NCBI GenBank assembly: GCA_965215365.1 | Contig: CBDCDS010000003.1 | Location: forward strand, 224,001 to 288,000 | DNA length: 64,000 nucleotides | Origin: Gammaproteobacteria bacterium | Lineage (GTDB): Bacteria; Pseudomonadota; Gammaproteobacteria; Eutrophobiales; Eutrophobiaceae | Direction of reading: 5' to 3' | Shown: positions 32,168 through 49,959 of the stretch, piece by piece | Position numbering within the stretch: the first letter of the stretch is position 1 | Layout: every line of letters starts with the position of its first letter | Position numbers and translations under genes: made by a program | Notes under the pieces: generated by a model | What the model was told of the DNA's origin: nothing | The model's input: the letters and a program-made list of their open reading frames with translations, nothing else | Database searches by the model: none

Positions 32168-35090
32168 AGGGGTTCTCTGTGGTAAAAAATTCGGTGATGC
32201 GTTCACGCAACCGGTTGATAGTCCGGTTCATCCTGCCTCGGCCCTTGACTTCCTCCAGGTACAGAAAATCAAACCGGTCATAGCCGAATTGCCGGTTGTT
32301 TTGTTCCAGGAAGCGGGTTTCCACGAAGGTTTTGCGCGCCTGAAATGCCCGATCATCCGCATAACCTCTGCCTTTGGTTTCTATCATCAGCGCCTTGCGT
32401 ATAGTTTTTCTGGTTTTGTCCCGTTGTATGATCAGAAAGTCTGTGGTGTAGCGGCCGATGTTCTGCCAGGCATTTCCTTTTTGCTGAAAACACTGGACCA
32501 CAAAGCCGGTCAGGCCGCGCTCGCCATTGTAATAAATCTCCAACCGGGAATCCTGGAATCTGTCCCAGGATAGTACTTTTTGCAGCAGTTCCAGTTCAAA
32601 GCCGCTGTGGATGAAATTGTATGGCAGGTAGTGAAAGCTCTTGTCACGTTGTTCAACTGCAACGGAATGCTTCTCATCCAGTTGTTGTTCCAGTTGACTG
32701 GTGTCCAGGTTCAGGCGTTTGAGGTTCTCAATAGCCCGTTGAATTTCAACTGTATCCTGCTCGGTGCGCGCGGTCGGCGGGTTCTTGTCGAAGCGTAAAA
32801 TTTTTTGCGTATCATCTTCATCCGGGTACAGCTTGTCGTTGACGGTCACCGGTATCAGTTTATCCACCAGTAACAGTTGTGCGTGCTCCGGGATAACCTC
32901 CTCATGGGTTTCCAGCTCGCGCTTGGGGCTGAAGGCCAGGCGTACCCGGCTTTCGATTGCGGCCCGGTCATATTGTTGATTCCAATACTGAATGCCTTGT
33001 TCGGTCAGAGTCATCGCATAAAAAATGTCGCGTAAACGCCCCCGATGTTCCCTGAACTCGGCGCTGCCGGTCTTGTGAAAACCCGTTTTGGCAAGGTGGT
33101 GCAGCCACTCGTTAAAGCCGACGGGCTGTTCGGCGCGGGCGTCGCTGATGCGCAACCGGCCGCCTTCCAGATCCGCAAAATCTGTGGTGGTGACGGCGGC
33201 GACGTGATGGTAGTCCTCCAGCGAGTCATGCAGCGCCTGCAATTTTTGCGCGGTTTGCGGGGCGTGGTCGTGGACGACGGTGCGGTAGCTTACCTTGAGT
33301 TGAAAAAAATCCAGAGCCGGCAGTTGCAGTTGCTCCACCCGCGCCTGACGTTCTGCTGGCGGTGTGATGTCAGCGCCGGCGGCCTGATTGAGTTCCTGTA
33401 TGGAGGTCTGTTGCTGCTGCCGTAACTGCTGATTCAGGATTTTTGCGTTGCCCTCGTTCAGCCAGATCACCGCTTCTTCTTTTTGTGCAGCCTGCGCGTC
33501 CACCTGACGCAAACAGCGGCAACTGGTTTGCAACACCATGTTGCGCCGACAATCGCCTTGTTGCGACAAGATGATACCGGTGAGGCTGCGGCAGTCCCAG
33601 CCTTCCTTGCCGACCTGGACCAGCAGGATGTAACGCCGCGCGGACGCATGCGGTGCCGCTAAGTCCAGCGAGCGGAACTCCAGCTCCGACCCAGGCGGTT
33701 GCGGGTGCTGCTTGTTGCCGCGGTGAAACTTCAGGATCTCCTGCTCCGGGATACGCAACTCCCCCACCAGAAACGGATAGACCTCGTTTTCCAGTGACGC
33801 GATGTCGCCGCAGTAGATGGCCAGCTTGGCGATAGTCCCATCGGCATAGCGTTGGGCGCCGAATTGCTGCTGAAAATCGGTAACGCCGGCGCGGATGATG
33901 TCCAGCCGGTTGTGCATGTCCTGGGCGATGTTGACCTGCGGCTTTTTCAGGAAGCTGTTAATCGCGCTGAGCAGCGGGTAATAGTAAACCGTGTTGGCAA
34001 TGCGGGAAAATTTAATGTTGACCGAGTCCGTCACTGCAACCCGGTCCGGGCTGCTCAGAAACGGCGTGCCGGAAAAGCCAAGCACCGTGGTGATATTGCC
34101 GCCCTGCTGCCAGTTATTGACCACCTGCCGCAGCTTAATATCGTCGGTGGCGGCATGGTGCACCTCGTCGATCAGCAGCGACAGGTTGGGTATTTTACCC
34201 AGCAGGTTGCGCAACTCGTTGGCAGCGCGATCGCGCTCATCGGCGTTTTTTGCTATCAGCTCCCGGTTGCGTTGCCCGTTGACGTCCAGTCGGTCAAGGA
34301 TGACCTTCTCGGCATTGACTACGAATACGGTCCCGTAAGGGCGCGGGAAACAGCTGTTGACTTTGTGCGCATTGGGGTTCCTGACCCGGTTGCTGCTCCT
34401 GGTCGACTTCTGCTCGTCGAGTATCTCAAATGACAGCTGGCGTTTGATTTGCGCGGCGGCCGGCTGCGGAATGACCCATTCGGGGTTGAAATTCTCTATG
34501 GTTTTCAGGCTGGGCGCGATGGAGGATTTCAGACCGGACGGGATCAGCACCAGGAAATTGTGCGCAAACACGGGATTGTCCGGTTCGTTTTCCGCAAAAT
34601 ACAGGTCCAGGTACATGAGCGCCGCCATGAGGAAGGTCTTGCCGGCACCCATGGGCAGGCTCATCAGGTAGTCCGCGTAATTCACCCCATAGAACATGTC
34701 CTTGATAATGCGCGGGTAATCCAGCGCCGCCGGGTCGTCCTGGATCAGTCGTTCCAGTTCCGGCAATACCGGCGCCGCGTGGGGTTGCTGACCGAGCGCA
34801 AACCCGCACAAGGCCAACGCCGCCGGATGCCGGCGCAGATACTTGCGGGTGTCCTGGCTGACCTTGAGTTGATTCAGGTCGATGTCATCGGTAAAGAAGT
34901 TCTCCGCAAACAGTTGCCAAAGCGGTTTGTTTTCACCTTCGATTTTCAGGTACAGGTAAGTCTCAAGCGCTTCCACCTGCGGTTGACGCAGGTATCTTTG
35001 TGTTCTGATATAAGATAAAAGATTAGAGGCGGGGCAGTTACCGGACCTGAGCCAGTTATTTTTCTTCCTTGCAATTAACTCATTCAGCAT
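32157..35090 (-). CDS. Type III-like restriction subunit (SF2 helicase + PD-(D/E)xK nuclease)
   Basis: PMGAGKT, IDEVHH, SGT, KEGWD, C-terminal TDFLI..IETKG. Confidence 0.85.
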   Translation of the reverse strand: MLNELIARKKNNWLRSGNCPASNLLSYIRTQRYLRQPQVEALETYLYLKIEGENKPLWQLFAENFFTDDIDLNQLKVSQDTRKYLRRHPAALALCGFALGQQPHAAPVLPELERLIQDDPAALDYPRIIKDMFYGVNYADYLMSLPMGAGKTFLMAALMYLDLYFAENEPDNPVFAHNFLVLIPSGLKSSIAPSLKTIENFNPEWVIPQPAAAQIKRQLSFEILDEQKSTRSSNRVRNPNAHKVNSCFPRPYGTVFVVNAEKVILDRLDVNGQRNRELIAKNADERDRAANELRNLLGKIPNLSLLIDEVHHAATDDIKLRQVVNNWQQGGNITTVLGFSGTPFLSSPDRVAVTDSVNIKFSRIANTVYYYPLLSAINSFLKKPQVNIAQDMHNRLDIIRAGVTDFQQQFGAQRYADGTIAKLAIYCGDIASLENEVYPFLVGELRIPEQEILKFHRGNKQHPQPPGSELEFRSLDLAAPHASARRYILLVQVGKEGWDCRSLTGIILSQQGDCRRNMVLQTSCRCLRQVDAQAAQKEEAVIWLNEGNAKILNQQLRQQQQTSIQELNQAAGADITPPAERQARVEQLQLPALDFFQLKVSYRTVVHDHAPQTAQKLQALHDSLEDYHHVAAVTTTDFADLEGGRLRISDARAEQPVGFNEWLHHLAKTGFHKTGSAEFREHRGRLRDIFYAMTLTEQGIQYWNQQYDRAAIESRVRLAFSPKRELETHEEVIPEHAQLLLVDKLIPVTVNDKLYPDEDDTQKILRFDKNPPTARTEQDTVEIQRAIENLKRLNLDTSQLEQQLDEKHSVAVEQRDKSFHYLPYNFIHSGFELELLQKVLSWDRFQDSRLEIYYNGERGLTGFVVQCFQQKGNAWQNIGRYTTDFLIIQRDKTRKTIRKALMIETKGRGYADDRAFQARKTFVETRFLEQNNRQFGYDRFDFLYLEEVKGRGRMNRTINRLRERITEFFTTENPYAG

Positions 35091-35142
35091 GATGTCAAGT
35101 CCGGTTTCGGGGGTGGATGTGTGCTATTATATACCCCCTTAA

Positions 35143-35517
<375 letters not shown>

Positions 35518-35523
35518 CGGGTC

Positions 35524-36576
35524 ATGCGTGCGACCGACGACTTACGTATCACCGCCATCAAGGCCGTGACCCCGCCCACGGAGGTCTGTGAAGAGCTCCC
35601 CATCAGCGCAGCCGCGGCCGAGACCACCTGGCAGGCGCGGCAGGCGATCATCAACCTGCTCAACGGCACCGACCCGCGCCTGCTGGTAGTGGCCGGCCCC
35701 TGTTCCATCCACGATGTGGACGCAGCCAGAGAATATGCCGCGCGGCTGCAAACACTGATTGAAAAACACCGCGCCGAGCTGCTGATCGTGATGCGCGTCT
35801 ATTTTGAGAAACCCCGCACTACCGTAGGCTGGAAGGGGTTGATCAACGACCCCGATTTAGATAACAGTTTCCACATCAACAAGGGTGTGCGTCTGGCCCG
35901 TTCCCTGCTGCTGGACCTGAACGAGCAGGGGGTACCCGCCGGCACCGAGTTTCTGGACATTATCACGCCCCAGTACGTTACCGATCTGGTCAGCTGGGGC
36001 GCCATCGGTGCGCGCACCACGGAAAGTCAGGTGCACCGGGAACTGGCCTCGGGGCTGTCCTGCCCGGTCGGGTTCAAGAACGGCACCAACGGTTCTGTGA
36101 AGATCGCCGTGGATGCCATTCGTGCAGCCGCGGTTCCCCACCACTTCCTGTCTATGCGCAAGGAGGGTAATTCGGCGATTTACACCACCACCGGCAATAC
36201 CGCCTGTCACCTGATCCTGCGCGGCGGCAAACAGCCCAATTTCGACTGCGCCAGCATTGACGCGGCCGCCGCTAAGCTCACCGCGGCCGAGCTCCCGGCC
36301 CGCATCATGGTGGACTTCAGCCATGCCAACAGCCGCAAAGAACACAAAAACCAACTGCTGGTCGGCGCTGATATAGGCCGGCAACTGCGTGACGGCGAGC
36401 GCCGGATCTTCGGCGTGATGATAGAGAGCCACTTGCAGGAAGGCCGCCAAGATGTAACGCCCGGGCAGGCACCGGAGTACGGCCGCAGCATCACCGACGC
36501 CTGCCTGGGCTGGGACGATACCGAGGCGCTGCTCGAGGAGCTGGCGGCGGCGGCCAAAGCCCGTCGCTTACTGTAG
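35524..36576 (+). CDS. DAHP synthase class I-alpha, paralogue 1
   Basis: GPCSIHD, RVYFEKPRT, GARTTESQ, GFKNGT, DFSHANS. Confidence 0.95.
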   Translation: MRATDDLRITAIKAVTPPTEVCEELPISAAAAETTWQARQAIINLLNGTDPRLLVVAGPCSIHDVDAAREYAARLQTLIEKHRAELLIVMRVYFEKPRTTVGWKGLINDPDLDNSFHINKGVRLARSLLLDLNEQGVPAGTEFLDIITPQYVTDLVSWGAIGARTTESQVHRELASGLSCPVGFKNGTNGSVKIAVDAIRAAAVPHHFLSMRKEGNSAIYTTTGNTACHLILRGGKQPNFDCASIDAAAAKLTAAELPARIMVDFSHANSRKEHKNQLLVGADIGRQLRDGERRIFGVMIESHLQEGRQDVTPGQAPEYGRSITDACLGWDDTEALLEELAAAAKARRLL

Positions 36577-38595: not shown

Positions 38596-39891
38596 ATGGC
38601 GCTGACGCGCCGCAACTTTGTGACCGGCGCCACGCTGGCGGGCGCCGCCGCCCTGGGCGGCGGTCTGCTGCCGGCCTGCTCGCGACCGCCCGGTGCCGGC
38701 GCGCCGCGGGTGGTGGTCGTCGGCGGGGGGTACGGCGGCGCCACCTGCGCCAAGTATCTGCGCCAGCTTGACCCGGCTGTCCACGTTACCCTGGTGGTAG
38801 CCCAGGCGCGCTATTACACCTGTCCGTTCAGTAATCCGGTACTGGCCGGCCTGCGCGACCTAGAGACTACCGCCCGAGGCTATGATGAGCTAAAAAATCG
38901 CTACGGCGTTCATGTGCTCCGGGCCACCGCCAGTGCCATCGACCCGGACCAACACACCGTCACCCTTGCCGACGGGACGGTGCTGCGCTACCAGCGGCTG
39001 GTACTCTCCCCCGGTATCAGCTTGCGCTGGAACCACATCATCTCCGGCTACGATGAAGCAGCCAGCCGGGTCATGCCCCATGCCTGGCACGGCGGCGAAC
39101 AGTTACTGCTGTTACAGCAGCAGTTGCGCGCCATGCGGCGCGGCGGCGTGTTTGCCATTGTAGTTCCCGGCGCCCCGTTCCGCTGTCCGCCCGGCCCTTA
39201 TGAACGCGCCAGCCTGGTGGCGCATTATCTCAAGCACGCCAACCCGCGCGCCAAGGTGTTGTTGCTGGATGCCAACGAACACTTCTCCAAGCAGGATCTG
39301 TTTGAAGAGGCCTGGGATGCGCGGTATCCGGGCCTGATCGAGCATGTCCCGATCTCGGCCGGCGGGCTGGTGCGCGCGGTGGCTCCAAAGCGCATGACTC
39401 TGCAGGCCGAGGCCGGAGAATTCAAGGTGGATGTGGCCAACGTCATCCCGTTCCAGCAGGCGGGCGGTCTGGCCGTCGAGCACGGTCTGGCCGACGAGCG
39501 CGGCTGGTGCCCGGTGGACCACCAGACTTTTGCGTCCACACTGGTCCCGGACATTCACGTGCTGGGGGACAGTTGCCTGGCCGGCAGTATGCCGAAGTCG
39601 GCCTCCTCCGCCAACAGTCAGGCCAAAGTATGCAGCCTGGCAATCGTGTCGCTGTTGCGCGATCGGGAACCCGGTGCCATGTTGTATCATAATACCTGCT
39701 ACAGTCTGGTGGCGCCGGACTACGGTTTTTCCATCAACGCCATGTACCGTTATGAAGACAACCGGATAAAACTGGTGCAGCGCGCCGGCGGGCTGAGTCC
39801 GCTGCAAGCTACGCCGGAGTATCGGGCGCGGGAAGCAAATTACGCCCGCAGCTGGTACGACAGCATCAACCGGGACAGCTTTGGGGTATAA
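38596..39891 (+). CDS. fccB: flavocytochrome c sulfide dehydrogenase flavoprotein subunit
   Basis: TRRNF Tat signal, GGGYGG, TCPFSN, RCPPGPYERAS, MPKS, NTCYS. Confidence 0.9.
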   Translation: MALTRRNFVTGATLAGAAALGGGLLPACSRPPGAGAPRVVVVGGGYGGATCAKYLRQLDPAVHVTLVVAQARYYTCPFSNPVLAGLRDLETTARGYDELKNRYGVHVLRATASAIDPDQHTVTLADGTVLRYQRLVLSPGISLRWNHIISGYDEAASRVMPHAWHGGEQLLLLQQQLRAMRRGGVFAIVVPGAPFRCPPGPYERASLVAHYLKHANPRAKVLLLDANEHFSKQDLFEEAWDARYPGLIEHVPISAGGLVRAVAPKRMTLQAEAGEFKVDVANVIPFQQAGGLAVEHGLADERGWCPVDHQTFASTLVPDIHVLGDSCLAGSMPKSASSANSQAKVCSLAIVSLLRDREPGAMLYHNTCYSLVAPDYGFSINAMYRYEDNRIKLVQRAGGLSPLQATPEYRAREANYARSWYDSINRDSFGV

Positions 39892-39919
39892 TCCGGCGCC
39901 TGATGACAATGACCTTGAC

Positions 39920-41032
39920 ATGTTTCAACTCACAGACGATTTACGCATAGCCGAACTGCGCCCGCTGGTGGCGCCGGCCATCCTCATGGAGGAGTTACCG
40001 CTCAGCGAACAGGTATCCAATCTGGTAGCCAAAACCCGGGGGGCGGCGAGTCATATCATCCGCGGGGATGATGAGCGGCTGCTGGTGATTGTCGGCCCCT
40101 GCTCCATACACGACCCGGAGGCGGCACTGGAGTATGCCACGCGGTTGGCTGTCGCCGCCGCGCGTTGGCAGGACGACCTGCTGATTATCATGCGCGTCTA
40201 TTTTGAAAAACCGCGCACCCGGGTAGGCTGGAAAGGCCTGATTAACGACCCCAACCTAGATAACAGTTTCAGCATCAACACCGGCCTGCGTAGCGCTCGC
40301 AAGTTGCTGCTTGACTTGGGCCATATCGGCATCCCTGCGGGTTCGGAGTTCCTCGATACGATCACGCCGCAATTTATTGCCGATCTGGTGTCTTGGGGCG
40401 CCATCGGCGCGCGCACCACGGAAAGCCAGGTGCACCGCGAGCTGGCCTCTGGCCTGTCCATGCCGGTGGGCTTCAAGAACGGCACCGACGGCAACATACA
40501 GATCGCCATTGACGCCATCGCCGCCGCGCAAAGCCCGCACCATTTCCTGTCGGTAACGAAACAAGGCATTTCCGCCATCGTTTCGACCCGGGGCAACGAT
40601 TGTTGCCACCTGATATTGCGCGGCGCCTCCCATGGTCCCAACTATGCGGCTGCGGACCTTGCAGCTGCCGCCAAAAAGTTGCACGACGCTAACGTCACCG
40701 CGCGGGTGATGGTGGATTGCAGCCACGGCAACAGCAACAAGGACCACGAGCGCCAACTGCTAGTCGCAGAAGACCTCTGCCGGCAGCTGGCGCAGGGTTC
40801 AAGACATATTTGCGGCGTGATGATCGAGAGCAATCTGAACGCCGGCAAGCAGGCTCTCAAGGATGCGGCGACGCTGGAGTACGGCGTGAGCATCACCGAT
40901 GCCTGCATATCCTGGGAAATGACCGAACCGTTATTGGAATCTCTGGCCGATGCGGTGCGGCAGCGGCGGGTTAACCACACACTACCGGTAATGATGATGG
41001 ACGTTTACCGGCACCGCCGAGCCCATGTCTGA
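39920..41032 (+). CDS. DAHP synthase class I-alpha, paralogue 2
   Basis: TDDLRI, GPCSIHD, RVYFEKPRT, GARTTESQ, DCSHGNS. Confidence 0.95.
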   Translation: MFQLTDDLRIAELRPLVAPAILMEELPLSEQVSNLVAKTRGAASHIIRGDDERLLVIVGPCSIHDPEAALEYATRLAVAAARWQDDLLIIMRVYFEKPRTRVGWKGLINDPNLDNSFSINTGLRSARKLLLDLGHIGIPAGSEFLDTITPQFIADLVSWGAIGARTTESQVHRELASGLSMPVGFKNGTDGNIQIAIDAIAAAQSPHHFLSVTKQGISAIVSTRGNDCCHLILRGASHGPNYAAADLAAAAKKLHDANVTARVMVDCSHGNSNKDHERQLLVAEDLCRQLAQGSRHICGVMIESNLNAGKQALKDAATLEYGVSITDACISWEMTEPLLESLADAVRQRRVNHTLPVMMMDVYRHRRAHV

Positions 41033-41285
41033 GCCCAACACCGGTTACGACCACTACCTAGACGCCAAGGGTCTGAACTGTCCGTTGCCGGTGCTCAAGA
41101 CCAAGCTGGCCCTGAACCGGATGCAACCCGGCCAAATCCTGTTCGTGGAAGCAACCGACCCCCATTCGGTCATTGATTTTGAAGCCTACTGCGCCCGCAC
41201 CGGCCATAACATCCTGCGCATAGACGAGGGTGAAGAGGTCATCGGTTTTACCATCAGCCGGGCCGAAAATCCGCGCAAAATCTGA
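41025..41285 (+). CDS. TusA-family sulfur carrier
   Basis: LDAKGLNCPLPVLK (CPxP), ATDP. Confidence 0.92.
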   Translation: MSEPNTGYDHYLDAKGLNCPLPVLKTKLALNRMQPGQILFVEATDPHSVIDFEAYCARTGHNILRIDEGEEVIGFTISRAENPRKI

Positions 41286-41288
41286 CGA

Positions 41289-41304
41289 GGGGGCGAGTAG
41301 TTAC
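41289..41304 (+). mobile_element. solo IS66 terminal inverted repeat
   Basis: GGGGGCGAGTAGTTAC identical to 1235-1250. Confidence 0.75.
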
Positions 41305-41321
41305 GAACCTAGACACCAAAC

Positions 41322-41350
41322 TTGCGGGTGCGTCGGCGATCTGCTAGACT
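41322..41350 (+). promoter_or_regulatory. putative sigma70 promoter of the ATPase (repeated at +2267 and +4534)
   Basis: TTGCGG-17-TAGACT with extended TG; AAGGAG RBS downstream. Confidence 0.55.
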
Positions 41351-41382
41351 TGCCACTCTTGTGTAACCTGTCAAGGAGCACT

Positions 41383-42678
41383 ATGACCACGCCGTTCCCG
41401 CATGATTTCAGTGACGAACGCTACTGCAAGGCCTTAAAGGGGTTATTCAAAGCCGGCACCGGCGTGACCCCACCCAAGCTCGCCGGGCGCGACGCCGAGG
41501 CCGAGCTCGCCGCCGATGTGCTGTTAGGCCCCTTAGCGGGCCGCAACCCCCCGGCGCGCGATCTGGTGCTCTTCGGGCCGCGCGGCAACGGCAAGACGGT
41601 GTTGCTCACTGATCTCGAGCGGCGCGCGGCGCGCGCCGGGATTGGCGTGCTCTCGTTGCGCCCACGCGCGCTCAAAACCCCAGCGGCACTCGCCGCCGTG
41701 TTGCTCAGGCCCGCCTCGACCACTGAGGATTCACAAGATAAGCCGGGCTTAGCCACGCGCACCGCCACTAAAGCCCTCGACACCGCCGAACGCGCCTCGG
41801 GCCAGCCGCTCAGCGTGGACAATGCCAGCGTCGGCGCGAGCGGCCTCGGCACGGTGTCATTGAGCGTCCCCGACTCCGATGCGCTCATGGTTGAGCTGGC
41901 CGAGCGGTTAACGAAGCGCTGTCGCGCACAACCGCTGTTGGTCACCGTGGACGAAGCCCATACGCTCGATATCGAGACCGGCGCTGATCTGCTCAACCTC
42001 AGTGAGGAGCTGCGGCGCAAAGATGTCCCGTTTGTCCTGATCTTAGCTGGTACACCGAACCTCGAGGCGCATTTGCGGCGTATGAACTCCACCTTCTGGA
42101 GTCGCTCTGAGATCGCGCCCATTGGCCGGTTGAGCACTGAGGCCACCGCACAGGCCTTAACCGAGCCGCTCGCTGGTTACTCGGTATCCATCGAGCCCGA
42201 TGCCTTGGCTAAGGTGGTGGATGACTCACAGTGTTATCCGTATTTCATTCAGCTCTGGGGCGAGGCTTTGTGTCGTGCCTTAGTCGAGCAGGTCGCCGGC
42301 CACACGGTGACCTTGGGTCTCGTCGAGCGGGTCGCCCCCGAGGTCGCCGCGCGCCGCGAACGTTATTACGGGGAGCGGTATCAGGAGCTCGAAGAGCGTG
42401 GCCTGCTCGAGGCCGCGGCGCTCGTCGCCGGCTGTTTCGAGAAGTCCGAGCAGGTGCATAAAGCGACGCTGCGTGCGGCGTTAGGTGAGGAGCTCGGCTT
42501 AGACGCCCAGCCGGCCACGGCGGCGCTCGATGAGATGGCGGCGTTAGGCTATCTCTGGCGCAAGAACACGGCGAATGATTTGTTCGAGCCCGGTATTCCG
42601 TCGCTCATGACCCATGTACAGGAACGATTGCAAGCTACCGTCGATAGGGACACGGCACCAGCAGGGACGCGGCCTTAG
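41383..42678 (+). CDS. STAND/AAA_16-like ATPase, copy 1 (variant), 431 aa
   Basis: GPRGNGKT, VTVDEAH, ILAGTP, SQCYPYFIQ, C-terminal wHTH-like region. Confidence 0.85.
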   Translation: MTTPFPHDFSDERYCKALKGLFKAGTGVTPPKLAGRDAEAELAADVLLGPLAGRNPPARDLVLFGPRGNGKTVLLTDLERRAARAGIGVLSLRPRALKTPAALAAVLLRPASTTEDSQDKPGLATRTATKALDTAERASGQPLSVDNASVGASGLGTVSLSVPDSDALMVELAERLTKRCRAQPLLVTVDEAHTLDIETGADLLNLSEELRRKDVPFVLILAGTPNLEAHLRRMNSTFWSRSEIAPIGRLSTEATAQALTEPLAGYSVSIEPDALAKVVDDSQCYPYFIQLWGEALCRALVEQVAGHTVTLGLVERVAPEVAARRERYYGERYQELEERGLLEAAALVAGCFEKSEQVHKATLRAALGEELGLDAQPATAALDEMAALGYLWRKNTANDLFEPGIPSLMTHVQERLQATVDRDTAPAGTRP

Positions 42679-42767
42679 CCCGCATATCTCACCAAGTGAT
42701 GCGAAGATCGCGCCGGATTTGTGATGCGCCCCTTCCCTGGGGCGCACCCTGCGGACATCCAAATTCC

Positions 42768-43026
42768 TTAAAACTCAGCCTGATAGCGCATCAGCAACGC
42801 CACGTCGTGCTCACCCCGCACATGCCCGGTGTCACGCGCGACAACGGTAGCGAAGTACGCGCGGCCGCCGGCCCAAGGCCGGGAATAGGTCAGTTCCAGG
42901 TCGAGCTGGCGCCCCGACGGCGTTAACCCCAATCGGGCCTGCTCAATATGCAGCTGACGCTGCGGAGTGCGTCCCGACACCCAGCGCAGCTGTGCATGCC
43001 CCGCCTCCACCCGTAACGGCTGGGAC
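42768..43026 (-). pseudogene. duplicated 3' end of S8 autotransporter gene
   Basis: Matches 47302-47560. Confidence 0.9.
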
Positions 43027-43120
43027 TGCGTCGCATGACAGCCGGCATTGTAGATTGCGGTCAGGCTCGGTTCAGATACAATTCAATATACTTTGCGCGG
43101 GCATTGGTGGTGACTGTAGA

Positions 43121-43555
43121 TGTCCGGGTTCAGAAACAAGTGAGACTCTTTAGATAAAGAAATCGGGTAGTTAAGTGTGTAAAGTGATTTCGATTAACTT
43201 ACACAGGAGGACTACCCGATGCAGATCAAAAGGTAAGCGGGTGAAATCATATCGCAGTTGGCGCGTCGATGATACTACCGATGCTGACGCGCGCGGTCGT
43301 TTGCAGCAGTTGGAATTAGTTGCGACGTTACGCGAGGATGGGTGTGGTGAGGCGACGGCACTGGCAGCAGTAGGTGGGTCGAGGGCGACCTACTACCGTT
43401 GGTTGAAGCGGTATCGTGAACATGGGCTGAAGGGTCTGGGGTGTGCCTCTCGTGCGCCGCGGCGGCGGCGTGTGCCGCAATGGACGCGCCAGCGCGAGCA
43501 GCAGGTCTTACACCTTCGCCAACGCTATCCGTTGTGGGGTAAGCGCAAGCTCTAG
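43121..43555 (+). mobile_element. IS481-like remnant (terminal repeat + frameshifted, truncated transposase HTH)
   Basis: TGTCCGGGTTCAG end; AGGAGG-ATG (43219) hits stop after 5 codons; shifted frame SRATYYRWLKRY..LRQRYPLWGKRKL. Confidence 0.65.
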
Positions 43556-43649
43556 CGGGTGCTTAGGTATTGAACCTAGACACCAAACTTGCGGGTGCGT
43601 CGGCGATCTGCTAGACTTGCCACTCTTGTGTAACCTGTCAAGGAGCGCT

Positions 43650-44945
43650 ATGACCACGCCGTTCCCGCATGATTTCAGTGACGAACGCTACTGCAAGGCC
43701 TTAAAGGGGTTATTCAAAGCCGGCACCGGCGTGACCCCACCCAAGCTCGCCGGGCGCGACGCCGAGGCCGAGCTCGCCGCCGATGTGCTGTTAAACCCCT
43801 TGACAGACGGCACCCCCCCGGCAGCGGACCTGGTGCTCTTCGGACCGCGCGGCAACGGCAAGACGGTGTTGCTCACTGATCTCGAGCGGCGCGCGGCGAG
43901 CGCCGGGATTGGCGTGCAAGCGCTGACTGCGCGCAGCTTCAAAGCGCCGGGCGGCCTTGCCGCGGTGTTGTTGAGGCCGGTTTCGGCGACTGAGAGTTCG
44001 CCCGACAAGCCGGATTGGGCGGAGCGCGACGCCGCCAAGGCACTTGATGCGGCGGGGCGCATGGCAAGCCAGACGCTCAGCGTGGACGGGGTTACCGTCG
44101 GCGCGCCTGGACTCGGCACGGTTTCATTGGGGGCGCCTGGCGAGACGGCACTGAATGTCGAACTAGTCGAGCGCTTAACGCGCCAATGTCGCACACAACC
44201 GCTGTTGGTCACCGTGGACGAAGCCCATACACTCGATATCGAGACCGGCGCTGATCTGCTCAACCTCAGCCAGCAGCTGCGGCGCAAAGATGTCCCGTTT
44301 GTCCTGATCTTAGCTGGCACGCCCAACCTCGAGGCGCATTTGCGGCGTATGAACTCCACTTTCTGGAGTCGCTCTGAGATCGCGCCCATTGGCCGGTTGA
44401 GCACTGAGGCCACCGCACAGGCCTTAACCGAGCCGCTCGCTGGTTACTCGGTATCCATCGAGCCCGATGCCTTGGCTAAGGTGGTCGATGACTCACAGTG
44501 TTATCCGTATTTCATTCAGCTCTGGGGACGGGCGCTGTGTGGCGCCTTGGTCAAGCAGGGGTGTGGCCACACGGTGACCTTGGGTCTCGTCGAGCGGGTC
44601 GCCCCCGAGGTCGCCGCGCGCCGCGAACGTTATTACGGGGAGCGGTATCAGGAGCTCGAAGAGCGTGGCCTGCTCGAGGCCGCGGCGCTCGTCGCCGGCT
44701 GTTTCGAGAAGTCCGAGCAGGTGCATAAAGCGACGCTGCGTGCGGCGTTAGGTGAGGAGCTCGGCTTAGACGCCCAGCCGGCCACGGCGGCGCTCGATGA
44801 GATGGCGGCGTTAGGCTATCTCTGGCGCAAGAACACGGCGAATGATTTGTTCGAGCCCGGTATTCCGTCGCTCATGACCCATGTACAGGAACGATTGCAA
44901 GCTACCGTCGATAGGGACACGGCACCGGCAGGGACGCGGCCTTAG
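43650..44945 (+). CDS. STAND/AAA_16-like ATPase, copy 2, 431 aa
   Basis: Same motifs as copy 1; AAGGAG RBS. Confidence 0.85.
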   Translation: MTTPFPHDFSDERYCKALKGLFKAGTGVTPPKLAGRDAEAELAADVLLNPLTDGTPPAADLVLFGPRGNGKTVLLTDLERRAASAGIGVQALTARSFKAPGGLAAVLLRPVSATESSPDKPDWAERDAAKALDAAGRMASQTLSVDGVTVGAPGLGTVSLGAPGETALNVELVERLTRQCRTQPLLVTVDEAHTLDIETGADLLNLSQQLRRKDVPFVLILAGTPNLEAHLRRMNSTFWSRSEIAPIGRLSTEATAQALTEPLAGYSVSIEPDALAKVVDDSQCYPYFIQLWGRALCGALVKQGCGHTVTLGLVERVAPEVAARRERYYGERYQELEERGLLEAAALVAGCFEKSEQVHKATLRAALGEELGLDAQPATAALDEMAALGYLWRKNTANDLFEPGIPSLMTHVQERLQATVDRDTAPAGTRP

Positions 44946-45034
44946 CCCGCATATCTCACCAAGTGATGCGAAGATCGCGCCGGATTTGTGATGCGCCCCT
45001 TCCCTGGGGCGCACCCTGCGGACATCCAAATTCC

Positions 45035-45293
45035 TTAAAACTCAGCCTGATAGCGCATCAGCAACGCCACGTCGTGCTCACCCCGCACATGCCCGGTGTC
45101 ACGCGCGACAACGGTAGCGAAGTACGCGCGGCCGCCGGCCCAAGGCCGGGAATAGGTCAGTTCCAGGTCGAGCTGGCGCCCCGACGGCGTTAACCCCAAT
45201 CGGGCCTGCTCAATATGCAGCTGACGCTGCGGAGTGCGTCCCGACACCCAGCGCAGCTGTGCATGCCCCGCCTCCACCCGTAACGGCTGGGAC
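45035..45293 (-). pseudogene. duplicated 3' end of S8 autotransporter gene
   Basis: Matches 47302-47560. Confidence 0.9.
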
Positions 45294-45387
45294 TGCGTCG
45301 CATGACAGCCGGCATTGTAGATTGCGGTCAGGCTCGGTTCAGATACAATTCAATATACTTTGCGCGGGCATTGGTGGTGACTGTAGA

Positions 45388-45822
45388 TGTCCGGGTTCAG
45401 AAACAAGTGAGACTCTTTAGATAAAGAAATCGGGTAGTTAAGTGTGTAAAGTGATTTCGATTAACTTACACAGGAGGACTACCCGATGCAGATCAAAAGG
45501 TAAGCGGGTGAAATCATATCGCAGTTGGCGCGTCGATGATACTACCGATGCTGACGCGCGCGGTCGTTTGCAGCAGTTGGAATTAGTTGCGACGTTACGC
45601 GAGGATGGGTGTGGTGAGGCGACGGCACTGGCAGCAGTAGGTGGGTCGAGGGCGACCTACTACCGTTGGTTGAAGCGGTATCGTGAACATGGGCTGAAGG
45701 GTCTGGGGTGTGCCTCTCGTGCGCCGCGGCGGCGGCGTGTGCCGCAATGGACGCGCCAGCGCGAGCAGCAGGTCTTACACCTTCGCCAACGCTATCCGTT
45801 GTGGGGTAAGCGCAAGCTCTAG
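45388..45822 (+). mobile_element. IS481-like remnant, second copy
   Basis: Repeat of 43121-43555. Confidence 0.65.
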
Positions 45823-45916
45823 CGGGTGCTTAGGTATTGAACCTAGACACCAAACTTGCGGGTGCGTCGGCGATCTGCTAGACTTGCCACTCTTGTGTAA
45901 CCTGTCAAGGAGCGCT

Positions 45917-47212
45917 ATGACCACGCCGTTCCCGCATGATTTCAGTGACGAACGCTACTGCAAGGCCTTAAAGGGGTTATTCAAAGCCGGCACCGGCGTG
46001 ACCCCACCCAAGCTCGCCGGGCGCGACGCCGAGGCCGAGCTCGCCGCCGATGTGCTGTTAAACCCCTTGACAGACGGCACCCCCCCGGCAGCGGACCTGG
46101 TGCTCTTCGGACCGCGCGGCAACGGCAAGACGGTGTTGCTCACTGATCTCGAGCGGCGCGCGGCGAGCGCCGGGATTGGCGTGCAAGCGCTGACTGCGCG
46201 CAGCTTCAAAGCGCCGGGCGGCCTTGCCGCGGTGTTGTTGAGGCCGGTTTCGGCGACTGAGAGTTCGCCCGACAAGCCGGATTGGGCGGAGCGCGACGCC
46301 GCCAAGGCACTTGATGCGGCGGGGCGCATGGCAAGCCAGACGCTCAGCGTGGACGGGGTTACCGTCGGCGCGCCTGGACTCGGCACGGTTTCATTGGGGG
46401 CGCCTGGCGAGACGGCACTGAATGTCGAACTAGTCGAGCGCTTAACGCGCCAATGTCGCACACAACCGCTGTTGGTCACCGTGGACGAAGCCCATACACT
46501 CGATATCGAGACCGGCGCTGATCTGCTCAACCTCAGCCAGCAGCTGCGGCGCAAAGATGTCCCGTTTGTCCTGATCTTAGCTGGCACGCCCAACCTCGAG
46601 GCGCATTTGCGGCGTATGAACTCCACTTTCTGGAGTCGCTCTGAGATCGCGCCCATTGGCCGGTTGAGCACTGAGGCCACCGCACAGGCCTTAACCGAGC
46701 CGCTCGCTGGTTACTCGGTATCCATCGAGCCCGATGCCTTGGCTAAGGTGGTCGATGACTCACAGTGTTATCCGTATTTCATTCAGCTCTGGGGACGGGC
46801 GCTGTGTGGCGCCTTGGTCAAGCAGGGGTGTGGCCACACGGTGACCTTGGGTCTCGTCGAGCGGGTCGCCCCCGAGGTCGCCGCGCGCCGCGAACGTTAT
46901 TACGGGGAGCGGTATCAGGAGCTCGAAGAGCGTGGCCTGCTCGAGGCCGCGGCGCTCGTCGCCGGCTGTTTCGAGAAGTCCGAGCAGGTGCATAAAGCGA
47001 CGCTGCGTGCGGCGTTAGGTGAGGAGCTCGGCTTAGACGCCCAGCCGGCCACGGCGGCGCTCGATGAGATGGCGGCGTTAGGCTATCTCTGGCGCAAGAA
47101 CACGGCGAATGATTTGTTCGAGCCCGGTATTCCGTCGCTCATGACCCATGTACAGGAACGATTGCAAGCTACCGTCGATAGGGACGCGGCACCGGCAGGG
47201 ACGCGGCCTTAG
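45917..47212 (+). CDS. STAND/AAA_16-like ATPase, copy 3, 431 aa
   Basis: Protein differs from copy 2 only by T>A near C-terminus. Confidence 0.85.
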   Translation: MTTPFPHDFSDERYCKALKGLFKAGTGVTPPKLAGRDAEAELAADVLLNPLTDGTPPAADLVLFGPRGNGKTVLLTDLERRAASAGIGVQALTARSFKAPGGLAAVLLRPVSATESSPDKPDWAERDAAKALDAAGRMASQTLSVDGVTVGAPGLGTVSLGAPGETALNVELVERLTRQCRTQPLLVTVDEAHTLDIETGADLLNLSQQLRRKDVPFVLILAGTPNLEAHLRRMNSTFWSRSEIAPIGRLSTEATAQALTEPLAGYSVSIEPDALAKVVDDSQCYPYFIQLWGRALCGALVKQGCGHTVTLGLVERVAPEVAARRERYYGERYQELEERGLLEAAALVAGCFEKSEQVHKATLRAALGEELGLDAQPATAALDEMAALGYLWRKNTANDLFEPGIPSLMTHVQERLQATVDRDAAPAGTRP

Positions 47213-47301
47213 CCCGCATATCTCACCAAGTGATGCGAAGATCGCACCGGATTTGTGATGCGCCCCTTCCCTGGGGCGCACCCTGCGGACATCCAAATTC
47301 C

Positions 47302-49959
47302 TTAAAACTCAGCCTGATAGCGCATCAGCAACGCCACGTCGTGCTCACCCCGCACATGCCCGGTGTCACGCGCGACAACGGTAGCGAAGTACGCGCGGCC
47401 GCCGGCCCAAGGCCGGGAATAGGTCAGTTCCAGGTCGAGCTGGCGCCCCGACGGCGTTAACCCCAATCGGGCCTGCTCAATATGCAGCTGACGCTGCGGA
47501 GTGCGTCCCGACACCCAGCGCAGCTGTGCATGCCCCGCCTCCACCCGTAACGGCTGGGACAGCCTTAGCGCCAGACGGTCCTGCGCGCCGGTGACCCCGT
47601 CGCCGCTAATTCCGAGTGAGAAGGCGCTGGTCCACAGCGCTGACGGATTGCGCAACATGCCCTGATAGCGCGCAGCAGCCTGGCTCAGACCCAGATGTGC
47701 GCTGCCCAGCAAGGTCCAAACGTCGTTCAATCGGCGCCCGGCGGACAGGCCCAGAAAGGCCGTCCCACCCGCAAAGTCGCCAAAGGCGCCGCGCGCGCGC
47801 TGACCGAGGACCCGTTCCGCTTCCGCCAGCCATCCTAACTGTAAGGATGCGTCGGCAGCGTCCGGCCAATGCAGCCGGTACTCAGCCAGCAGGCCCGTGG
47901 CTGGTGCTGAGTCAGTATCCTGCTGCTCGCCATATTGTGCCGACCCGTGAAAGGCGGCCACGCGCAAGGAACCACTTCCCGACCCGCTGAACCGGTCAGA
48001 ATTAAATGGAAAGAGTACAGCATAGCCCAGGTGGGCGCCATTGCGCGCCAGGCCAAGATAAGGATTGGTAAACGCCGCAGGGTCGCTGAAGGCGCCGGGT
48101 TTCAGCCCCACACGGCGCATGGAGGATGTCGGGTGCGCTTCGAACCACCGGTTCGGATCGTCGCGATAGCCAAGAAAAAACTGCCCGCCGGCCCCACTCC
48201 AGGTGGTTGACAGGGACGCGACCCGAATCGGCACGGCCTCAGTTACACGCCCGTCGTTGCGCCCGGCCCGGGTTGCCGGGTCGGTGTGGTCGCGGTGGCG
48301 CTGGCTTGCGCGGGTCAGACGTATCCGTGCAGACGCGTCGTGACGCTGCCAGAGTGCGCTACGCCGCTCGTTGCCCAGGGTGTAAAGACGCTCCTCAAGC
48401 CCGACCCGGGCGGCAACATCCGCCTGCAGGTACTCATCAAGCGCATGGAAGAATGGCGCCGCCGCCTCATCAAAGCTCGCCACCTCTTTGGCGGCCAATC
48501 CCCGCGCCAGCGCGTCGCCAAAGGCCGCGCCCTGACGCAGCATACTGTCGCTGGTCGGCGCCGCAGCCCCGGACAGTGACTCGCCGAGCAGCAGCCGCGT
48601 CTGCCCGCGCGGCCGGGTGGCGGCGTCAAGGTCTAAAAACCCCTGGCCGTAGGTATCCGCATCCGCATAAATGCCGGTCTTGTCGGCGCTGCTGAGCAGC
48701 CGCTGCACCAGCTCGTCATTGCCAAGTTGATTGCGGTAGTGCTGCGCCAGTAGCGCAAGCCCGCCAGTAACAAAGGGCGCCGCCGCAGAGGTTCCCGAAT
48801 CCTCAATAATGCCGAAGCACTCTGCGGTATCAGCCGGGCAATAGAGGGCGGGGACCGGGGCGGCGATGGCAACGCCCGGCGCGGCCAGACAAAAATCCTG
48901 CGCAATACCGCAAAAGTTGGAGAAATCTGCAATGTTGCCTTCCCGATCCGTTGCCACTACGGCGATACTGTGACCGCGCAGCGCCGGAAATCGCACCGGC
49001 AGACCGGCTGCGATCTCAACTGAACTGGCGGAGTCGATAGAACCGTCAGACATCATCTCACCACGGGCGTTGCCGCCCGCCCATACGTAGATGGTGCGCT
49101 CCGCAGCCGGCACGTCTGCTTGGGTCACCGCCTGAATAATGTTGGGCGCGCGCGCCTGTAACTCCTCGGCAGTGTAATTTTCAATATTGCCGGAGAGGCC
49201 CAAGCTGGCATTCACGGCTACGACCCTGGAGTTCAGCCTGTTGAAGGCTGCGGCAATTTTCTTCTCGACCTCGGCCTCTCGCCGGGCGAGGCGCTCTTGA
49301 ACTTGTTCGATAAATTGCTGCAACTCCTCAGGCGTGGGAGCTGCCGGTGGCTCTGGCAACAGGTCATCGTGCAGGCTGATATCGGGCGAGATCGAGATAA
49401 CGCCAGCATCGAAGGCAACGCCATGAACGGCAGCCTCAGGACCGAAGAAGGTCCGCCCCATAGCGGCGGCCCGATTGGCGGCAGCCGCCGCCGAGTCGTC
49501 GTTAGCGGCTTCCGAGGCGGCGCTTCTGGCGGCTGCCATGATGCCGGCCACATAGGTGCCATGTCCTATATCGCTCTGGCAGCGACCATCGTCCGCAGGC
49601 GATTCACAGACGCGGAAGTCCGGTTTGTAGCCATCCACTTCGAGCACCTCGAGCTTGCCCCGGAACCTGGGATGATCCGGATCGACGCCGGTATCAACGA
49701 TGCCCAGCGTCACTCCGGCGCCGGTTGCGCCTCTGGCATAAGCGTAATGCGCCTTGATCTGAGCCAGCCCATACTGATTGCGGAATTCGGTGCGTGCAGC
49801 AGCCTCTTCGCGTCGCTGCCGCTCCGCAACCTCCGGAGCGACCGCCGCCGGCGCCAGCTTGACGGTACCGTTGTCGCTGGCGCAGCCGGACACGAGCAAG
49901 TACAGGCCCAGCAGCAGCGCCAATGGCGCGCGCAGCGCTACCGCGGTCATCTTATCCAC
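47302..49959 (-). CDS. S8 (subtilisin-like) serine peptidase, lipoprotein with autotransporter-like C-terminal beta-domain
   Basis: Lipobox LVSGC, IVDTG, HGTYVAG, GTSAAAP triad motifs; terminal YQAEF. Confidence 0.88.
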   Translation of the reverse strand: MDKMTAVALRAPLALLLGLYLLVSGCASDNGTVKLAPAAVAPEVAERQRREEAAARTEFRNQYGLAQIKAHYAYARGATGAGVTLGIVDTGVDPDHPRFRGKLEVLEVDGYKPDFRVCESPADDGRCQSDIGHGTYVAGIMAAARSAASEAANDDSAAAAANRAAAMGRTFFGPEAAVHGVAFDAGVISISPDISLHDDLLPEPPAAPTPEELQQFIEQVQERLARREAEVEKKIAAAFNRLNSRVVAVNASLGLSGNIENYTAEELQARAPNIIQAVTQADVPAAERTIYVWAGGNARGEMMSDGSIDSASSVEIAAGLPVRFPALRGHSIAVVATDREGNIADFSNFCGIAQDFCLAAPGVAIAAPVPALYCPADTAECFGIIEDSGTSAAAPFVTGGLALLAQHYRNQLGNDELVQRLLSSADKTGIYADADTYGQGFLDLDAATRPRGQTRLLLGESLSGAAAPTSDSMLRQGAAFGDALARGLAAKEVASFDEAAAPFFHALDEYLQADVAARVGLEERLYTLGNERRSALWQRHDASARIRLTRASQRHRDHTDPATRAGRNDGRVTEAVPIRVASLSTTWSGAGGQFFLGYRDDPNRWFEAHPTSSMRRVGLKPGAFSDPAAFTNPYLGLARNGAHLGYAVLFPFNSDRFSGSGSGSLRVAAFHGSAQYGEQQDTDSAPATGLLAEYRLHWPDAADASLQLGWLAEAERVLGQRARGAFGDFAGGTAFLGLSAGRRLNDVWTLLGSAHLGLSQAAARYQGMLRNPSALWTSAFSLGISGDGVTGAQDRLALRLSQPLRVEAGHAQLRWVSGRTPQRQLHIEQARLGLTPSGRQLDLELTYSRPWAGGRAYFATVVARDTGHVRGEHDVALLMRYQAEF

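Follow-up and report, generated by a model that had tools for sequence, protein, structure and literature searches.

We found that positions 41305-47560 of a 64,000-nt gammaproteobacterial window (the whole stretch of contig CBDCDS010000003.1 that was analysed) carry a head-to-tail array built around a gene for a 431-amino-acid (aa) ATPase. In our judgement, with a probability of roughly 70%, the region is a real segmental triplication, recent in evolutionary terms, of 1.7 kb of chromosome; an IS481-family insertion sequence (IS), left only as a relic, bridges the copies, and the triplicated gene belongs to a family of recombining paralogues. The segment comprises one solo ATPase gene, the 3'-terminal 259 bp of a convergent S8 peptidase gene and the terminator hairpin that the two genes share. 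The amplification mechanism itself is already known and belongs to ordinary bacterial genome dynamics. The notable part is the gene inside the array, for which we observed many copies per genome, exchange across phyla, module-swapped paralogues and recurrent tandem pairs. The coordinates of all features are collected in Table 1.

The array was detected by self-comparison of the window at an offset of 2267 and by a repeat search, with a period of 2267 bp and 2.76 copies; Tandem Repeats Finder, whose longest period is 500, did not see it. These results bore out the tandem amplification of a 2267-bp unit that an earlier note on this DNA (the original prediction) had described, together with its three complete 431-aa ATPase genes, and the lengths it had given for the S8 fragment and for the linker between units (545 bp) were exact. 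Over their full length, units 1 and 2 were 94.1% identical, and outside a divergent patch in copy 1 they differed at only 2 sites. The homology to the S8 gene stops at 47560, and unit 3 is continuous with the intact S8 gene. Copies 2 and 3 showed exactly 2 differences in 1722 bp, the same two single-nucleotide polymorphisms (SNPs) that had been predicted: ACG/GCG at 47186, which gives T424A in copy 3 relative to copy 2, and CGCGCC/CGCACC at 47246. Both are private to copy 3 and flank its stop codon on either side. The junction of S8 fragment, 545-bp IS relic and leader is present twice, in identical form, and nowhere else in the window.

Table 1. Features of the ATPase array and the adjoining S8 gene (positions in the window).
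Feature	Position	Strand	Remark
Repeat unit 1 (2267 bp: leader, ATPase copy 1, hairpin, S8 3' fragment, IS relic)	41305-43571	+	
Repeat unit 2 (2267 bp)	43572-45838	+	
Partial repeat unit 3 (1722 bp), passing into the intact S8 gene	45839-47560	+	2 mismatches to unit 2
ATPase copy 1 (431 aa, type-B insert variant)	41383-42678	+	88% aa identity to copy 2
ATPase copy 2 (431 aa)	43650-44945	+	
ATPase copy 3 (431 aa; T424A relative to copy 2)	45917-47212	+	
Mosaic divergent patch in copy 1 (771 bp), read as a putative gene-conversion tract	41527-42297	+	
Extended -10-like TGCTAGACT in the repeated leader, promoter candidate	41342-41350; repeats 43609-43617, 45876-45884	+	Read from the sequence
GC-rich hairpin between the convergent genes, 8-bp GC stem	42725-42746; repeats 44992-45013, 47259-47280 (period added)		
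S8 peptidase gene 3' fragment 1 (duplicated last 259 bp)	42768-43026	-	
S8 peptidase gene 3' fragment 2 (duplicated last 259 bp)	45035-45293	-	
IS481-family relic 1 (leader and about the first third of the transposase ORF; frameshift and in-frame stop)	43027-43571	+	
IS481-family relic 2	45294-45838	+	100% identical to relic 1
Intact convergent S8 subtilase gene (885 aa)	47302-49959	-	Peptidase_S8 1.6e-34

The divergence between the copies was strongly localised. Copies 1 and 2 differed at 140 positions, 138 of which lay within the 771-bp patch, so that the description of copy 1 as another near-identical copy did not hold. Synonymous divergence (dS) between these two copies was 0 in codons 1-30, 241-270 and 331-420. 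It reached 0.97-1.5 in codons 91-180, and codons 31-60 and 271-330 contained smaller divergent patches. The ratio of nonsynonymous to synonymous divergence (dN/dS) was 0.35 for codons 48-310. A dS of 0 in the flanks together with a high dS in the patch excludes duplication followed by point mutation, and conversion from a diverged paralogue fits. Residues 84-182 of copies 2 and 3 were 82% identical to the paralogue P0003 and 61% identical to copy 1, and the same residues of copy 1 were 82% identical to P0004 and 71% to P0005. When a tree was built from this segment, an approximately unbiased (AU) test rejected copy 1 and copies 2/3 as sisters (p = 5e-7). Taken as sequence patterns, these results indicate that the patch probably arose by gene conversion from a diverged paralogue. 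A mechanism of the diversity-generating retroelement type was considered and rejected, as copies 1 and 2 differ by every type of substitution and show no adenine specificity.

The segment between the S8 fragment and the next leader, correctly measured in the original prediction, is not neutral filler and appears to be a decayed and truncated IS481-family element. The two linkers were identical at 545/545 positions. The open reading frame (ORF) in the first (43175-43555) matched HTH_32 (1.3e-9), HTH_23 and LZ_Tnp_IS481 (2.5e-4) in Pfam and the transpos_IS481 model NF033577 in NCBIfam (2.3e-13, positions 2-81 of 284). Its full-length relatives are proteins of 335-341 aa with an rve_3 domain, and the best of them, the 341-aa rve_3 transposase P0121, was 91% identical to the linker over P0121 residues 4-114. 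The linker is damaged in several ways: its frame differs from that of the ATG corresponding to the P0121 start, a stop codon occupies the position of a P0121 tryptophan, and the ORF ends at about one third of the transposase. Pfam gave no match to the rve (DDE catalytic) domain in the linker, and a DDE domain accompanied by both terminal inverted repeats was not found there. Because the rve domain is missing and the similarity to P0121 stops at residue 114, the linker is best read as a relic and not an active element, that is, as a dead IS481-family insertion sequence. The decay of this IS would be older than the last duplication, because both relics are identical and carry the same defects. 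No further copies of it were found within the window. By eye, an imperfect inverted repeat (CGGGTAGT ... ACTACCCG) is visible in the IS leader at 43160-43220 and 45427-45487, just 5' of the relic transposase start. A second kind of IS in the window is represented by an IS66-family transposase (2-1243), which is cut by the window start.

We propose that the array may have arisen in three steps. A first duplication would have made the junction of S8 fragment, IS relic and leader, with the IS already decayed or truncated; unequal homologous recombination between the 2.27-kb repeats would then have given the third copy; and gene conversion would have overwritten some 770 bp of a single copy with the sequence of a diverged paralogue. 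The patch variant of copy 2 is also that of copy 3, so that the conversion would have taken place either before these two copies split or in copy 1 at any time. The first junction could have formed by insertion of the IS into a duplicated S8 fragment and a subsequent deletion, or an IS located in S8 could have recombined illegitimately with the leader. Under this scheme, the array would be a by-product and a substrate of paralogue diversification and not a dedicated 'accordion'. It resembles known tandem gene amplifications and the 'accordion' of NLR clusters or poxviruses in its near-identical head-to-tail units with a novel junction, in a third copy explicable by unequal homologous recombination, and in apparent gene conversion between paralogues. 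It differs from these in showing no sign, in the one assembly, of copy-number selection or variation and in a junction that carries an IS relic instead of a full IS or a short repeat.

Each unit carries a leader, a ribosome-binding site (RBS), a coding sequence and a hairpin, which broadly supports the earlier description of a self-contained cassette. All three 431-aa ORFs start at ATG, and AAGGAG can be read 6 nt 5' of each. Longer ORFs with GTG starts (482 and 500 aa) were rejected as over-extensions, given that the alignment with relatives begins at the first residue of the 431-aa protein. Each gene had been said to possess its own promoter candidate and RBS. The RBS stood; for the promoter, a strict sigma-70 scan of 41000-47700 returned 0 promoter-like sites, which leaves only the extended -10-like TGCTAGACT as a candidate. 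This element aligns with TGATAGAAT upstream of L001, the closest relative fetched. The hairpin expected after each ATPase gene was present, and the 100-nt intergenic stretch folds with z = -2.8. A terminator scan of 41000-47700 gave 4 terminator-like matches compared with 5.5 expected by chance, and the intergenic hairpin was not among them.

To describe the protein, the original prediction had used the term STAND-like ATPase with a winged helix-turn-helix. Pfam matches above cut-off were AAA_22 (1e-10) and AAA_16 (3e-10; 41.3 bits against 32.6); nSTAND6 (17.9 and 16.8 bits against 27.7) and AAA_30 fell below cut-off, no Cdc6/Orc profile of Pfam matched, and NCBIfam held no family for the ATPase. 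An AlphaFold2 model built from 52 relatives (predicted local distance difference test, pLDDT, 85.6; predicted template modelling score, pTM, 0.83) accounted for the full 431 aa with a P-loop alpha/beta core, a helical lid and a C-terminal winged helix. An insert lies between strand E88-93 and helix H165-182, ahead of the Walker B strand, and its residues 113-161 were modelled with low confidence (pLDDT < 50). Walker A (GPRGNGKT), Walker B (DEAH) and about 40 other positions were invariant in the 52 sequences and are kept by all three copies; an LAGRxxE motif precedes the P-loop, and the lid contains a YPYF motif.

The structural search called for in the original prediction gave Orc1/Cdc6 proteins as the best matches: in Foldseek against the PDB, 2qby_A ranked first (8.5e-11), then 2v1u, 1w5t and 1fnn (420-461 aligned columns), next eukaryotic ORC and Cdc6, the archaeal ATPases 2qen and 2fna (TMq 0.55 and 0.49) and RuvB, and at lower ranks an NLR resistosome (9h2l_A) and MalT (8bob_C). 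A fold search of BFVD returned only generic AAA+ proteins such as clamp loaders, and PDB searches by single sequence and by profile returned only the P-loop region of spastin and p97. Sensor repeats (TPR, WD40, LRR) and effector domains were found in the 431-aa protein neither by Pfam nor in the model, and fused forms of 756-2155 aa were absent among the relatives searched, which is weak evidence by the tool's own rating. These results indicate that the protein is, as modelled, an Orc1/Cdc6-like AAA+ ATPase predicted to lack a sensor or effector domain, which is more exact than 'STAND-like'. The fold part of the earlier assignment stood (AAA_16/AAA_22 and the winged helix), whereas 'STAND' was imprecise in view of the nSTAND6 score, the Orc1/Cdc6 structures at the top of the ranking and the missing sensor repeats. 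The term 'effector-less' agreed with the results, as neither an effector domain nor a conserved partner gene was found.

Three known groups bear comparison with the ATPase. The archaeal Orc1/Cdc6 proteins (2qby, 2v1u, 1w5s/1w5t and 1fnn) are of similar size (about 400 aa), consist likewise of an AAA+ core, a lid and a winged helix at the C-terminus, and gave the best matches in Foldseek (E 8.5e-11 to 4.7e-9, TMq 0.41-0.52), at a sequence identity of 14-17% and with sequence-level PDB and Pfam matches that end at the P-loop region. The ATPase differs from them in its insert after beta-2, which is long, hypervariable and of low confidence in the model, and in belonging to a bacterial, horizontally transferred family with no sign of a nearby replication origin. 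Archaeal genomes hold several Orc1/Cdc6 paralogues, and the insert and the winged helix are reportedly the DNA-contacting elements of Orc1/Cdc6, according to the work on 2qby and 2v1u. The archaeal ATPase_2 proteins (PF01637) PAB2304 (2qen) and SSO1545 (2fna) had the highest TM-scores to the model; they are likewise solo, with a function likewise undefined, and PF01637 is precomputed on the family members P0049, P0053 and P0067. The window copies differ in missing PF01637 in the Pfam scan and in the domain of life of their host, and to our knowledge module shuffling has not been described for ATPase_2 proteins. With the STAND NTPases (AAA_16/NB-ARC/NACHT, including bacterial Avs and bNACHT), the ATPase shares AAA_16 above cut-off, a P-loop with Walker A/B and, after it, a module of helices and a winged helix, and the NLR resistosome and MalT among its fold matches. 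STAND proteins carry the motifs hhGRExE and GxP, which LAGRxxE and YPYF resemble. The ATPase differs from them in having no sensor repeats or effector, in nSTAND6 remaining below cut-off and in the lack of an Avs or NLR match in PADLOC.

The ATPase belongs to a large family. An exhaustive phmmer search, counted as cluster representatives, found 2206, 1011 and 339 members at E <= 1e-3, 1e-10 and 1e-30, respectively; most matches align in two stretches on either side of the insert, which is not alignable family-wide. Copy numbers per genome were taken from the best 120 matches of a word-indexed search, clustered at 90% identity. The paralogue count that the original prediction had called for came to at least 10 distinct clusters on a 2,632,991-bp contig, apparently the window's own chromosome. 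At least 14 clusters were located on one 303,127-bp contig (P0020-P0062), about one per 22 kb, and at least 7 on a 3,097,171-bp contig. A scan of genome contigs found 316 stretches that encode a relative, the best 80 of which gave 74 loci. Their sources are metagenome-assembled genomes (MAGs): Gammaproteobacteria, with Ca. Azotimanducaceae among them, Spirochaetia, Acidobacteriota and a single Longimicrobiales. This set does not contain the window's organism, and its best relative reached 61% identity. A tree was built from 70 loci (of the 74, those 4 with fewer than 300 uninterrupted aa were dropped) and 9 proteins of the window or its own genome. In it, the own-genome paralogues formed one clade with L002 and L003 (support 100), and P0110 was placed elsewhere. 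A second clade of 47 rows contained four phyla interleaved on short branches, with 7 phylum-label changes compared with a minimum of 3.

Plasmid matches of the ATPase amounted to 68 records, all below 60% identity and 80% query coverage, as solo 'ATP-binding protein' genes that gave no information on function; distant relatives (about 31% identity) were found on actinobacterial plasmids, one of them adjoining an IS30 transposase. A protein atlas held only AAA_16/AAA_22 clusters with automatic names. No description of the ATPase family appeared in the search listings and the beginnings of abstracts, and a look-up of terms in PMC13581612 and PMC7159879 returned no passage relevant to it. The family carries only the name 'ATP-binding protein' in databases and, unlike the mechanism that amplified it here, appears from these searches to be unstudied.

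Duplication and module exchange were both seen elsewhere in the family. More than one ATPase match was present in 11/74 loci, and 7/74 had a second long copy (at least 247 aligned aa) within 21 kb; L002 had three copies. At the DNA level, tandem copies were 97.1% identical over 1256 bp in L021, 91.2% in L033 and 86.4% in L024, where they are adjacent, the hosts being two Spirochaetia MAGs and one Vicinamibacterales MAG. Four modules are exchanged, namely the N-terminus, the insert that follows beta-2 and is hypervariable, the core, and the winged helix: P0008 and P0011 had inserts 100% identical and C-terminal domains 53% identical, and P0008 and P0014 had cores 95% identical and inserts 41% identical. 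As judged from such comparisons, the family appears to be multi-copy, to have been transferred across phyla, and to evolve by local duplication and module exchange between paralogues. The array is one case of this duplication and gene conversion across the family, and its proposed status as a stand-alone undescribed system was not upheld.

Several loci had further features of their own. The tandem pairs of L021 (9939-12797) and L024 (8632-11216) are in two different Spirochaetia MAGs, and the copies used share a small clade in the tree, which suggests that tandem ATPase pairs can persist across species. The three ATPase copies of L002 (681-17048) lie between 2.3-kb inverted repeats that are 88.6% identical. 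In the gammaproteobacterial MAGs of L013 (4431-16738), L016 (43-10335) and L002 (681-17048), the ATPase gene or genes stand between giant RTX/FG-GAP proteins.

On the basis of the modelled fold, we tentatively suggest that each paralogue might be an ATP-dependent switch that binds DNA or another ligand, with its specificity set by the insert and the winged helix. A wider view, which we consider doubtful, would take the array as a snapshot of a prokaryotic 'birth-and-death plus gene-conversion' engine like that of NLR clusters in plants. In this picture, the insert and the winged helix would be the two putative recognition modules of a solo Orc1/Cdc6-like ATPase family and would be diversified by local tandem duplication and module exchange among at least 10 paralogues per genome, yielding a repertoire of effector-less DNA or ligand sensors that is shared horizontally by uncultured bacteria of at least four phyla. 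If the insert and the winged helix do set specificity, bacteria would have in this family a further, new case of a recognition repertoire that diversifies, and copies 1 and 2, which differ almost only in the insert, would constitute a natural swap experiment. If they do not, the locus is a clean case of a duplication bridged by an IS relic and followed by gene conversion between paralogues.

An adaptive 'accordion' is an unlikely reading; on this view the array would be an expandable set of immune sensors without effectors, forming an undescribed system against phages or mobile elements whose copy number rises under attack. The fold is related to STAND/ORC-type switches (9h2l_A, 8bob_C and AAA_16), but no effector domain or partner gene accompanies it: the largest neighbour family within +-6 kb occurred in only 9/74 loci, and the 54 co-directional neighbours within 150 bp were a heterogeneous set with no recurrent effector. 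Neighbours in the 74 loci were mostly metabolic, surface or unknown proteins (the top clusters being ABC transporters, dehydrogenases, ankyrin, TPR and RTX proteins, DUF4143/AAA_14 and AAA_15/21 ATPases and HNH), and few were defence-like (AAA_15/21, HNH, DUF4143). The family is multi-copy, spread across phyla and module-shuffled, as immune repertoires often are, and its tandem pairs recur in other phyla; however, the copy-number picture of the array comes from one assembly, the point substitutions in the patch are not under positive selection (dN/dS 0.35), and a phage collection gave no tblastn match to the ATPase. A methyltransferase gene with a large ORF lies about 6 kb upstream, yet PADLOC-DB 2.0 found only mad8 (E 5.5e-3 and 7.3e-4), weakly and in partial stretches, none passing alone. 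The array is, moreover, flanked by core housekeeping genes, with carAB, greA, ftsH, dnaG, rpoD, DAHP synthase and tusA upstream and OsmC, miaB, phoH, ybeY, corC and lnt downstream.

We consider it improbable that the array is an assembly artefact, in which a true locus of 1 or 2 copies was expanded at the repeat or strain variants were stitched in tandem. The evidence comes from one assembly, the related records are MAGs in which strain mixtures are plausible, and copies 2 and 3 differ at only 2/1722 positions; nevertheless, these differences are the private SNPs of copy 3 on either side of its stop codon. Allele collapse cannot create the junction of S8 fragment, IS relic and leader, which is unique in the window to the array. 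The 140 substitutions of copy 1 are confined to the patch between identical flanks, and with no fewer than two distinct copies present (copy 1 versus copies 2/3), the array is not a pure artefact, as the original prediction had argued. The copies also lie on a 2.63-Mb contig, a length suggestive of long-read assembly, which could bridge 6.3 kb.

Very improbable is an accessory gene of a mobile element, with the ATPase as a transposition helper (TniB-, IstB- or TnsC-like) or the initiator of an integrated element and the array as repeated insertion of an element bearing the IS fragment: against the AAA_22 matches at 1e-10 (a Pfam family that also covers TniB-type proteins), the IS481 relic abutting copies 2 and 3, the plasmid relatives, one by an IS30 transposase, and the initiator fold of Orc1/Cdc6 stand the duplicated 3' end of S8, which shows segmental duplication in place and not element insertion, the lack of any tblastn match of the linker IS ORF in the 74 loci, the absence of a transposase family among the recurrent neighbour clusters examined and of an IstB, TniB or TnsC structure among the fold matches listed, and flanking genes among which no integrase, tRNA or other island marker was seen (no tRNA scan was run).

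Several points weigh against the segmental triplication of a recombining paralogue as we read it. The copy number, 2 or 3, comes from the assembly alone. Both routes proposed for the first junction are tentative, as the IS is represented by truncated DNA copies in which its left end is not delimited. The best match to the patch, as a candidate donor of the conversion, reached only 82% at the protein level, and the clade for the AU test was named after the identities had been seen. That P0003 to P0014 are on the window's own chromosome is only our inference. An orthologous single-copy locus was not found: S8, TusA, DAHP synthase, OsmC, MiaB and two other flanking ORFs were unmatched in the 74 loci. 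DNA binding and ATPase activity are predicted from the fold, with PDB sequence matches limited to the P-loop region, and the insert after beta-2, in large part modelled with low confidence, may occupy the place of the initiator-specific motif, a helical insert that follows strand beta-2 in AAA+ proteins of the initiator clade. In addition, the differences within the L021, L033 and L024 pairs are not clustered in the insert, and the position of the patch is no family rule; the recurring feature of the compared sequences is mosaicism and not one fixed hot spot.

The convergent gene at the right end of the array had been described as an S8 autotransporter. The peptidase part of this assignment was confirmed by Peptidase_S8, and the EprS model matches the protein over its peptidase part only. 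The autotransporter part was not supported, as the C-terminal 326 aa (47305-48282, minus strand) gave no Pfam match at E <= 1. The S8 protein ends in ...QAEF, and its N-terminus resembles a lipoprotein signal by eye (LLVSGC).

Upstream of the array, two aroG-type DAHP synthase paralogues (35524-36576 and 39881-41032) lie on the same strand, 3.3 kb apart, and between them are a 523-aa ORF without a family and an ORF like sulfide:quinone reductase. Farther upstream, on the minus strand (30311-35475), a DNA-methyltransferase-like ORF (30311-32203) overlaps a 976-aa ORF (32157-35087) that has no NCBIfam match, accompanied by a 126-aa ORF; this group, about 6 kb from the array, may be a restriction-modification or defence module.

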